Shown: piece after piece, positions 23,152 to 24,369 of the stretch | Layout: each line of letters opens with the position of its first letter | How positions within the stretch are numbered: position 1 is the stretch's first letter | Virus genome (UHGV): UHGV-0224535 | Length of the DNA stretch: 31,938 nt | Strand: one strand, 5' to 3' | Source: a virus | The notes under the pieces: generated by a model | Database searches by the model: none | What the model was told of the DNA's origin: nothing | Seen by the model: only the letters and a program-made list of their open reading frames with translations | Translations under genes and position numbers: made by a program

Positions 23152-23179
23152 CCCCGCGCGAAGCGGGGTTATTATTATT
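23152..23179 (+). terminator. rho-independent terminator (CCCCGC-GCGAA-GCGGGG followed by TTATTATTATT)
   Basis: Read directly. Confidence 0.65.
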
Positions 23180-23291
23180 CCATTTCCATTAACGCTATAT
23201 TTTCCGCTATCGTTTTCCAGTCCAGATCTACAGCATGAACACCAAATACTATCAATCCCATTGCGATTAGTGCTAAAACTTCGATTTTCAT
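23175..23291 (-). CDS. small hydrophobic or secreted peptide (38 aa, MKIEVLALIAMGLIVFGVHAVDLDWKTIAENIALMEME)
   Basis: GTGAGG RBS; hydrophobic N-terminus. Confidence 0.35.
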   Translation of the reverse strand: MKIEVLALIAMGLIVFGVHAVDLDWKTIAENIALMEME

Positions 23292-23383
23292 AATCAACCT
23301 CACTTAATTAAGAAAGGCATAAACGATGACAATCGCGCCAGCCACTACCAAAACGTTTTCGATTACTTCGTCCACTCTATTCA

Positions 23384-23587
23384 TTAAGGTAACTCCACTT
23401 CATTAAATGTAACAAGCACCCCTTGATTTTCTTTATTTATAATTATGAAGGCATTAATTGAAGGCAGACATCTTTCCACGCGGTAAACGTCACCAATATC
23501 TAAACTGTAATATTCTGTTAATTCTCTATTGTTCCCTTTAGCAAAACCCGTAAACCTAACCATTCCTTGACCGTCGTACTTTAACAT
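23384..23587 (-). CDS. hypothetical protein (67 aa)
   Basis: Track ORF; tightly spaced after the upstream minus-strand gene. Confidence 0.45.
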   Translation of the reverse strand: MLKYDGQGMVRFTGFAKGNNRELTEYYSLDIGDVYRVERCLPSINAFIIINKENQGVLVTFNEVELP

Positions 23588-23595
23588 ATACAGTC

Positions 23596-23844
23596 CTATA
23601 GGCTATCACGCAGATAATTAACGCCCTTATCAGTGACGAATGAATGATTAACCTGGTTTTCATCCGTCATGATGATGAATAACTTTTCCTGTAGGTATTT
23701 CGCTTTCGGGTACAGCGTTAAGCAGACCTGGTACAAAATCCCGCGCTCAATCAGCAAATCAATAAATTCGTGCTCATGATAACCGATAAGGCGGGCGGCC
23801 TGCTTCAACGTGTACACATAATCACTGTGATTGCGCCGCGCCAT
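23596..23844 (-). CDS. hypothetical protein, possible HTH/DNA-binding (82 aa)
   Basis: YTLKQAARLIGYHEHEFIDLLIERGIL resembles a helix-turn-helix segment; track ORF. Confidence 0.5.
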   Translation of the reverse strand: MARRNHSDYVYTLKQAARLIGYHEHEFIDLLIERGILYQVCLTLYPKAKYLQEKLFIIMTDENQVNHSFVTDKGVNYLRDSL

Positions 23845-23852
23845 ATTGCCAC

Positions 23853-24200
23853 CTATTTGTCGAACGCTCCAAGATTATCTATACAGAAATCCTTTGCCGC
23901 TTTTTCGTATTCGCGTTTTGCTTGCGGATCGTCAGCCGGGAAACCTTTTGCGTGTATTTCACCAGGGCAAGACTGATCCATAGAGTCTGCAAAATTAACA
24001 TTGAAGTTAACATTAATATCTTTCGGGTTCATATCTTCCACCTCATCAACTATCTGTACCGGATTAGCAGCATATTTCACTGGATGGCCTAAACTACATT
24101 CAAGAATCCTGCCTTCTTCCAGGGCTACTTCTTCGCTATCAAATAATCCGAAACACTCCTTTCTACCACTTAACCACACATCAAGACTGTATTTTTTCAT
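23853..24200 (-). CDS. hypothetical protein (about 115 aa) with N-terminal domain paralogous to the 24181..24369 gene
   Basis: LFDSEEVALEEGRILECSLGHPVKYAAN versus LYDDEGEALVDALLLVEDDRLLGYQIEPVKYEAN in the upstream gene; start taken at an internal Met (the track begins at 24302). Confidence 0.5.
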   Translation of the reverse strand: MKKYSLDVWLSGRKECFGLFDSEEVALEEGRILECSLGHPVKYAANPVQIVDEVEDMNPKDINVNFNVNFADSMDQSCPGEIHAKGFPADDPQAKREYEKAAKDFCIDNLGAFDK

Positions 24201-24369
24201 TTTTGTTAGCCTCATATTTGACAGGTTCGATCTGGTATCCCAAAAGGCGGTCATCCTCAACAAGTAAAAGCGCGTCAACCAATGCTTCCCCCTCGTCGTC
24301 ATACAGGGCGATAACCTTTTCCCTACCGTCTGTCATGAATGCCGTCAACTTCCATAGCTTTTCAGTCAT
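24181..24369 (-). CDS. hypothetical small acidic protein (62 aa), paralog of the N-terminus of the 23853..24200 gene
   Basis: GGAGGTG RBS before the ATG at 24369; the track ORF 24181..24489 starts further upstream. Confidence 0.5.
   Translation of the reverse strand: MTEKLWKLTAFMTDGREKVIALYDDEGEALVDALLLVEDDRLLGYQIEPVKYEANKNEKIQS

Follow-up and report, generated by a model that had tools for sequence, protein, structure and literature searches.

The stretch of DNA analysed here, referred to as the window, comprises 31,938 nucleotides of the virus genome UHGV-0224535 and corresponds to the late region of a temperate E. coli siphophage resembling mEp021, from the mEpimmI group described in PMC11893012. 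The subject of this report is an island of backwards genes that separates the genes of the gpM-like and gpL-like minor tail proteins (M and L). The M-L gap measures 1,552 bp and holds one plus-strand open reading frame (ORF) of 61 aa, a bidirectional hairpin and six tightly packed minus-strand ORFs, named A, B, C, D, E′ and E from the 5′ end of the island (Table 1). An earlier note on this DNA, made from the letters alone, had described a separation of about 1.5 kb and at least five minus-strand genes; both statements are borne out, with the flanking genes assigned to PF05939 (gpM) and PF05100 (gpL), and E′ is additional to its list.

The minus-strand genes overlap or lie 8-12 nt apart and each is provided with a Shine-Dalgarno (SD)-like sequence, which argues for one operon. 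A 20-nt overlap joins the end of A with the start of B, and the start of E′ overlaps the stop codon of D (TAATG). A conserved GGAGGTG SD sequence precedes the ATG of A at 24369, and an alternative upstream ATG at 24387 would give a product of 68 aa. The hairpin at 23151-23169 is predicted to end both the transcript of the plus-strand 61-aa ORF, which lies on the late strand and is part of the inserted DNA, and that of the island operon. The minus-strand genes had been described as bracketed by terminators and a promoter-like gap; the promoter-like 5′ region stands, but there is a single terminator, bidirectional and at the 3′ end only. A search of Rfam found no RNA family in 21200-24700.

Table 1. 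Positions of the island features, the flanking genes, the 11-mer copies and the second island (window coordinates; aa, amino acids; dN/dS, ratio of nonsynonymous to synonymous substitution; GRAVY, grand average of hydropathy)
Feature	Position	Strand	Evidence or remark
gpM-like minor tail protein, left flank	22593-22946	+	PF05939, 99 bits, E 2e-28
61-aa acidic ORF 3′ of gpM, own SD	22960-23145	+	phrog_3249, E 7e-21; dN/dS 0.10
Bidirectional GC-rich hairpin terminator (predicted)	23151-23169	both	Terminator scan on both strands; RNA fold, 7-bp GC stem
E, 38-aa hydrophobic peptide	23175-23291 (start 23291)	-	GRAVY 1.05; dN/dS 0.15
E′, 26-aa hydrophobic peptide	23304-23384 (start 23384)	-	Read from sequence; GRAVY 1.28
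D, 67 aa	23384-23587 (start 23587)	-	dN/dS 0.12; weak phrog_14327 match (E 1.5e-5)
C, 82 aa, stand-alone ANT/KilAC, core gene	23596-23844 (start 23844)	-	PF03374
B, 115-aa acidic protein, core gene	23853-24200 (start 24200)	-	Alignment; AlphaFold model
A, 62-aa acidic paralogue of the B N-domain, core gene	24181-24369 (start 24369)	-	BLASTP; phrog_29559
Sigma-70-like promoter (predicted)	24413-24444	-	Promoter scan; block invariance in relatives
CRP-like site (putative)	24466-24480	-	TGTGA-N6-TCAC(G)
gpL-like minor tail protein, right flank	24499-25203	+	PF05100, 239 bits, E 3e-71
TWTACAAWATG	24422(-)		At the M-L island
TWTACAAWATG pair	18964(+)/18993(-)		Between the backwards 139-aa secreted-protein gene and the tape-measure gene
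TWTACAAWATG pair	22496(-)/22564(+)		Between the backwards ParE-like toxin-antitoxin pair and gpM
TWTACAAWATG	31249(-)		Before the backwards lipoprotein gene after gpJ
TWTACAAWATG	2751(+)		Pairs with an inverted variant at 2779
51-aa acidic ORF, second island	22422->22267	-	In nearly all relatives examined
84-aa ParE-like toxin, second island	22249->21995	-	PF24732, 42 bits vs 24.4; in all relatives examined
61-aa acidic ORF, second island	21885->21700	-	A hydrophobic ORF lies there too
Bidirectional terminator, second island	21387-21407

Sequences of this kind are not new to the databases. A megablast search with 21300-24600 returned only mEp021, mEp010, mEp013, mEp044, mEp515, mEp554 and MagusPhagus, at 81-86% identity; the IMG/VR prophage contig IMGVR_UViG_2541047752_000007 shows 100% protein identity throughout the region, and a similar stretch was found in 35 of 5,426 complete E. 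coli genomes. The island genes are already present in GenBank and RefSeq as hypothetical proteins and a 'KilAC antirepressor'.

The M-L junction in related phages

The M-L distance was measured in loci gathered through gpL, a set which provides an unbiased check on the loci found through C. The island is carried by 41 of the 42 loci in which gpL is at least 85% identical and both M and L are present. In the lone exception, L057 (IMGVR_UViG_3300045988_076424, 4366-4388), the deletion runs from just past the stop codon of M up to where A starts, and it removes the plus-strand 61-aa ORF as well. Since the 5′ regulatory region is intact in L057, the deletion is a secondary loss; the region 5′ of A, kept there beside gpL, may also serve the expression of gpL.

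A sister group, with gpL 70-72% and gpM 57-67% identical and a GC content of 0.54-0.59, provided the second comparison. The earlier note had pointed to the adjacency of M and L in lambda-like tail modules, and the two are adjacent in 17 of 36 sister loci. In the other 19, unrelated cargo of 179-1,302 bp, for the most part minus-strand, fills the junction; its GC content is 0.38-0.45 in 17 of them and 0.49-0.52 in the two shortest inserts, a pattern which argues that the M/L junction is a recurrent docking site for foreign cassettes. The plus-strand 61-aa ORF is missing from the sister group. The most divergent homologue of B (44% identical) also lies between L and M in the same kind of phage, which argues that the island is family-specific. 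As to composition, the GC content of the island is 0.412, about 10 points below that of M and L (0.508 each), and the whole window stands at 0.462; such a departure from the flanks had been anticipated.

The comparison among 43 distinct islands showed B in 43, C in 43, A in 42, E in 30 and D in 11, where the universality of B and C is partly by construction, the loci having been found through C. The core of the island is A-B-C and its 3′ end is variable, with other small ORFs occurring sporadically. In one island (L034, IMGVR_UViG_3300029816_000005), two extra ORFs that are homing-endonuclease-like, with HNH-like and AP2-like motifs, stand between B and C, and mEp021 and four others have a different 77-93-aa ORF at this B/C position. 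In the manual core analysis of PMC11893012, a 'phage antirepressor protein KilAC-like' was counted among the proteins common to all 48 genomes. The earlier description of an acquired accessory cassette is therefore sustained as regards its accessory nature, by the sister group, L057, the GC content and the predicted promoter and terminator, but not if a recent or private acquisition is meant, given its presence in 41 of the 42 gpL loci and the place of the KilAC-like gene in the published core.

Taken as a whole, the comparisons show the island to be a separately bounded, conserved and dispensable predicted operon, antisense to the late genes and equipped with a conserved promoter region of sigma-70 type. 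The gap between genes that are adjacent in relatives, the promoter and terminator predicted within it and a GC content unlike that of the flanks support its classification as a putative accessory operon of moron type, which occupies an insertion hotspot, is old and has become fixed in the mEpimmI family. Morons in the sense of Juhala and Hendrix include HK97 gp15 in the tail module and lambda lom and bor. With these lambdoid and HK97-like elements the island shares the extra DNA between genes adjacent in relatives, the late-region location, the promoter and terminator and the lower GC content; it differs from them in having five to six genes, a family-fixed core and elements in common with three sister cassettes, while its expression in the prophage is inferred. 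That morons of such layout occur in tail modules was known already, as was the core status of the KilAC-like gene (PMC11893012). Beyond the ordinary are the family-wide stand-alone KilAC protein accompanied by two orphan acidic paralogues, the modular architecture of B and the elements linking four backwards cassettes.

A function in tail assembly or structure, or the view that the ORFs are spurious, is hardly credible. The position in the tail module and the occurrence of KilAC in all family members would suit a tail function, but the genes lie on the opposite strand with a predicted promoter and terminator of their own, and neither L057 nor the sister phages, whose M and L are homologous, carry them. 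The same observations contradict the possibility, considered in the earlier note, that related phages carry these genes as conserved core tail-assembly components. The mEp021 record names gp69 and gp75, but not gp70-74, as structural, and none of the island products is given such a name.

Against spurious ORFs stand dN/dS values well under 1. Mean pairwise dN/dS among the relatives is 0.30 for A, 0.21 for B, 0.11 for C, 0.12 for D and 0.15 for E, compared with 0.04-0.09 for the tail genes; A to E are under purifying selection and are real genes, E′ being too short for the coding test. The nonsynonymous divergence (dN) reaches 0.275 in the N-domain of B and 0.166 in A, against 0.074 in the C-module of B, 0.035 in C and 0.03-0.06 in M and L. 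The proteins A and B have diverged 3-8 times as much as M and L, and their alleles are mosaic; synonymous divergence (dS) is saturated in both, pointing to allelic lineages that are old and have been reshuffled through recombination. Among relatives, C, D and E show a far lower dS than M and L (0.23-0.32 vs 0.74-0.88), which suggests that recombination has recently spread this segment or that its DNA or RNA is under an additional constraint.

Products of the island

The 82-aa protein C had been called helix-turn-helix-like, but its match is to the ANT/KilAC family PF03374, with 31.1 bits against a gathering score of 25.3 and with residues 7-82 on profile positions 20-105 of 108. It is a complete KilAC domain and nothing else; a Pfam scan found no N-terminal AntA/AntB, Bro-N or pRha domain in it. 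Among the relatives the protein is 89-100% identical, and its nearest relatives outside the family are the C-terminal domains of 206-233-aa Rha/Ant proteins in Vibrio and Cronobacter phages. The structure model is of low confidence, with a predicted local distance difference test (pLDDT) score of 68; in a Foldseek search of it against the PDB all matches had E > 1, and a sequence search of the PDB gave no match. The proposal of the earlier note that the cassette would have a regulator of its own is plausible.

The earlier note had recognised no family among the products, which does not hold for C, and A, B, C and D also match PHROG families. PADLOC-DB 2.0 returned no family at E <= 0.1 for any of 10 proteins from this island and a second backwards island described below, so that lysogenic conversion, exclusion, defence and anti-defence are all no more than candidate roles.

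The reading of A and B as paralogous acidic proteins is confirmed by BLASTP (39% identity over 41 aa, E 4e-5) and by isoelectric points of 4.4 and 4.5, respectively. The alignment of B reveals a variable N-domain (residues 1-50) followed by a near-invariant C-module (57-115), ADSMDQSCPGEIHAKGFPADDP.AKREYEKAAKDFCIDNLGAFDK. In the AlphaFold model, residues 1-50 form a strand-strand-helix-strand arrangement with blockwise pLDDT of 90-95, and the C-terminal part is poorly modelled. Co-variation of the A alleles with those of the B N-domain was considered and rejected, as A and B alleles reassort independently among the relatives.

A search of 5.8 billion clusters gave 59 matches for B and 20 for A, most of them unnamed and the named ones all from E. 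coli or bacteriophage, and a profile search with B among 1.84 billion representatives gave 15 matches. Neither protein matched Pfam, NCBIfam or PADLOC, and a Pfam scan extended to all 37 B-family members found nothing. By these sequence searches, A and B are orphan families. The fold search of B against BFVD gave small DUF7336-type phage proteins as best matches (E 8e-3). The C-module of B also exists alone, as a 64-aa ORF at 5001-5195 of L132 (JGI 3300045988), a 119.6-kb metagenomic phage contig, where it adjoins tRNA-Arg and tRNA-Met genes and many small ORFs. The name 'transporter', given to A by RefSeq/PGAP (e.g., WP_085654716.1 in L004), is unsupported, A being acidic, soluble, 62 aa long and without a family match. 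At the 3′ end, E and E′ are single-span hydrophobic peptides, and E′ was found by tblastn in only a subset of relatives.

Promoter region and elements shared with other backwards cassettes

The 5′ regions of 37 unique island sequences were aligned. The 5′ end of the island is a promoter region of 111-129 bp, whose predicted hexamers TTGATC (24444-24439) and TATATT (24421-24416), 17 nt apart, are invariant in nearly all of the 37. An 18-bp palindrome, TACAATATGTATATT(G/T)TA at 24430-24413, overlaps the -10 element and contains the family motif TTTACAATATG. It occurs once in the window, and no copy was found in bases 1-38,500 of mEp021, immunity region included, on which ground its reading as a repressor operator was rejected. 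Farther upstream stands a CRP-like site, TGTGA-N6-TCAC (24480-24466), with invariant half-sites and a free 6-nt spacer. It agrees with TGTGA-N6-TCACA at 9 of the 10 core bases, is the sole match in the window against 0.14 expected, and has its centre about 62-64 bp (about -63.5) upstream of the predicted transcription start. Control by Dam through GATC sites of the promoter was rejected, because GATC is not conserved whereas TGTGA and TCAC are. The 5′ region further holds an invariant TACTCAAA block and, just 5′ of A, an invariant GTTAACAAAATGG; no LexA box (CTGT-N8-ACAG) is present in 24388-24498. On the plus strand, a promoter-like TTGTTA-18-TAAAAT lies at 24389-24418 and would read into gpL.

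Half of the palindrome corresponds to the 11-mer TWTACAAWATG, which is found 7 times in the window against 0.12 expected (about 60-fold) and 7 times in mEp021 1-38,500 against 0.21 (about 30-fold). All 7 window copies are intergenic, and 6 of the 7 lie at a strand switch, where the usual arrangement is an inverted pair. In mEp021 (L131) the copies are at 2376, 6063, 11925, 20076/20144 and 37647/37676; the inverted pair at 20076/20144 flanks the terminator TERM_4, and the 2751/2779 pair of the window appears to correspond to it. The motif may represent a promoter core common to these sites, or else a phage regulator may use it as its operator.

Three further opposite-strand cassettes of the late region are associated with the 11-mer. 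The first belongs to a second backwards island, located at 21383-22592 between the tape-measure gene and gpM, in which the 51-aa acidic ORF and the ParE-like protein probably form a toxin-antitoxin pair, as judged from sequence. Its promoter region holds a CRP-like TGAGA-N6-TCACA (22521-22536) with a free spacer and largely conserved half-sites, the left one varying among TGAGA, TAAGA and TGATA. The next is a backwards 139-aa ORF with a signal peptide (orf139), at 18320-18739 just before the tape-measure gene and with a GC content of 0.39, which holds the position of mEp021 gp63 and makes up the fourth opposite-strand cassette of the late region. The last is a backwards lipoprotein gene after gpJ (31153-30912), whose product MKNMLKVVLFAAAVALTGC... 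appears, as judged by its lipobox and its position after gpJ, to be an Lpp-type exclusion protein. The Lpp product excludes phages when expressed (PMC11893012). CRP-like sites are thus found in three of the four cassette 5′ regions (M-L island, toxin-antitoxin island and lipoprotein), and orf139 has a half-site only.

The island and the Lpp/Cor-type cassette of the same phage (30912-31153) have several features in common. Both are backwards and carry the 11-mer; an 18-nt TTTTGTGATCTGYGTYAC at the CRP-like site of the island recurs in the 5′ region of the lipoprotein cassette (31270-31287), and a 21-nt TAACCCCGCTTYGCGCGGGGT of the island hairpin recurs in the gpJ/lipoprotein hairpin (30877-30897). 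The Lpp/Cor-type cassette differs in consisting of one lipoprotein gene, of a type for which exclusion has been demonstrated (PMC11893012), and the island products are unrelated to it. The shared promoter and terminator elements suggest a common wiring of accessory cassettes in the mEpimmI family.

One alternative reading is superinfection exclusion or abortive infection, in which incoming phage DNA would be blocked by the membrane peptides, or by A and B, in the manner of HK97 gp15. A backwards cassette in the tail module, beside a toxin-antitoxin pair and with elements in common with the Lpp cassette, would fit this proposal, and so would the single hydrophobic span of E and E′. The hydrophobic peptides, however, belong to the dispensable part of the island (E in 30/43, as also D in 11/43), the core proteins A, B and C are soluble and acidic or neutral, and PADLOC gave no match; an exclusion function is accordingly very doubtful.

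The distribution of the 11-mer also bears on an early operon for host takeover or anti-defence, which would be shut off by the prophage repressor through TWTACAAWATG and switched on at infection or induction, with A and B as acidic inhibitors of host proteins or of host defence and KilAC as their regulator. An exact 11-mer of mEp021 lies within a promoter-like TTGACT-17-TATATT immediately to the right of the repressor gene, on whose left variants occur. Both A and the B N-domain are small and acidic, and they evolve fast and in a mosaic manner, as in an arms race, and the C-module of B alone occurs in a large tRNA-bearing phage contig that by its type does not look temperate. The fold is that of generic small phage proteins, with weak matches to AcrIC8, T7 Gp2 and DUF7336 proteins, but every fold match is below significance. 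It further counts against an early operon that the same motif precedes the Lpp lipoprotein and the toxin-antitoxin genes, kinds normally expressed by prophages, and that the full 18-bp palindrome has no counterpart in the mEp021 bases searched. We regard this explanation as rather unlikely.

A proposed role in lysogeny control or phage conflict

The reading that we favour, with a probability of roughly 0.55, is that of an accessory operon which would be expressed by the prophage and would act, by analogy with known KilAC proteins, on lysogeny or SOS control or in phage-phage conflict; our confidence in any single molecular target is far lower than that in the reading as a whole. According to this proposal, the host RNA polymerase would transcribe the island in phases of silent late transcription, namely in the prophage or at an early stage of infection. 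The island would be co-regulated with the three other backwards cassettes, namely orf139, the ParE-like toxin-antitoxin pair and the Lpp lipoprotein, and possibly modulated by CRP. Because an exclusion lipoprotein and a toxin-antitoxin pair are kinds of product that prophages normally make, expression in the prophage is favoured.

As the conserved effector or regulator, the KilAC-only protein C would target the lysogeny/SOS circuit. The precedent is AriS of Listeria, whose KilAC domain, taken by itself, is enough to block the SOS response, probably at RecA (PMC9043618). The repressors of mEpimmI phages have the S24 catalytic domain and lack the Ala-Gly (RecA) cleavage site, and their lysogens are not inducible by ultraviolet light (UV). 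As KilAC is the only product with a family, the AriS precedent and the non-cleavable, non-UV-inducible state of mEpimmI place an action of C on the lysogeny/SOS circuit in the lead. C shares with AriS the KilAC domain, which in AriS suppresses SOS on its own; it differs in being KilAC only, in an E. coli siphophage and in a tail module, and such an activity is attributed to it by analogy. The fast-evolving acidic proteins A and B would serve as binding or inhibitor modules against variable targets, and the small membrane peptides would be add-on cargo. A family-wide KilAC operon that is predicted to be separately transcribed is a candidate for the control of exit from lysogeny in mEpimmI phages, or for a conflict module.

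Several points weigh against this proposal. Expression of the island in the prophage is an assumption, and the KilAC analogy bridges from Firmicutes to E. coli and draws on overexpression. The missing cleavage site by itself already accounts for the UV non-inducibility without any part played by the island. Measured from the predicted start, the putative CRP site misses the canonical class I position by 2 bp; the 11-mer adjoins the mEp021 repressor gene and could be a repressor operator, in which case the island would be an early lytic operon. The island products, finally, gave no match in PADLOC, NCBIfam, PDB sequences or the fold libraries.

The same repressor properties would suit a second immunity or induction module, comparable either with P22 or P1 immI or with the distant antirepressors of Gifsy phages, in which KilAC, with or without B, would inactivate the CI-like repressor upon a non-SOS signal such as cyclic AMP (cAMP)-CRP. 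P22 immI is located in the late region. A non-cleavable repressor and lysogens that UV does not induce would require another route of induction, KilAC is the C-terminal domain of many antirepressors, and the conserved CRP-like site together with the operator-like palindrome over the -10 element would provide the control. Antirepressor genes outside the immunity region are known (PMC3121763). Like Gifsy GfoA/GfhA (PMC3121763), 186 Tum, N15 AntC and P22 immI (mnt-arc-ant), the island would combine a non-cleavable repressor with a small-protein operon far from the immunity region; it is set apart from them by the want of a LexA box, of ribbon-helix-helix (RHH) regulators and of any sequence similarity found, and by a CRP-like site in place of SOS control. 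The Gifsy antirepressor genes are not located among tail genes but sit 1.3 kb downstream of the replication genes (PMC3121763). An induction module is unlikely: C has no Bro-N, AntA or pRha N-terminal domain; no Arc/Mnt-like RHH protein was found, A and B having no Pfam match and the N-domain of B being modelled as strand-strand-helix-strand; the searched promoter region has no LexA box; and the regulatory elements are common to cassettes that are expected to be on in lysogens.

A bolder form of the favoured accessory-operon reading, which we consider rather improbable, would make the four backwards cassettes one regulon under cAMP-CRP or one phage regulator, with KilAC as insulator or trigger of the lysogeny switch and A and B as specificity partners. 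The chassis of such a regulon would consist of a TWTACAAWATG pair per strand switch, the CRP-like sites in three of four cassettes and the hairpin common to the island and Lpp. If true, the regulon would couple the genes for lysogenic conversion to cAMP-CRP or to a single phage regulator.

Phages of the mEpimmI group are as frequent as lambdoid phages in E. coli of the human gut, and mEp021 grows on K-12, which makes the readings directly testable in this phage. The haemolysis gene ipe of mEp021 was considered as an island gene and rejected, since ipe is gp29 and lies far from the island. In the second backwards island, the toxin-antitoxin genes are joined by a 61-aa acidic ORF and a hydrophobic ORF.

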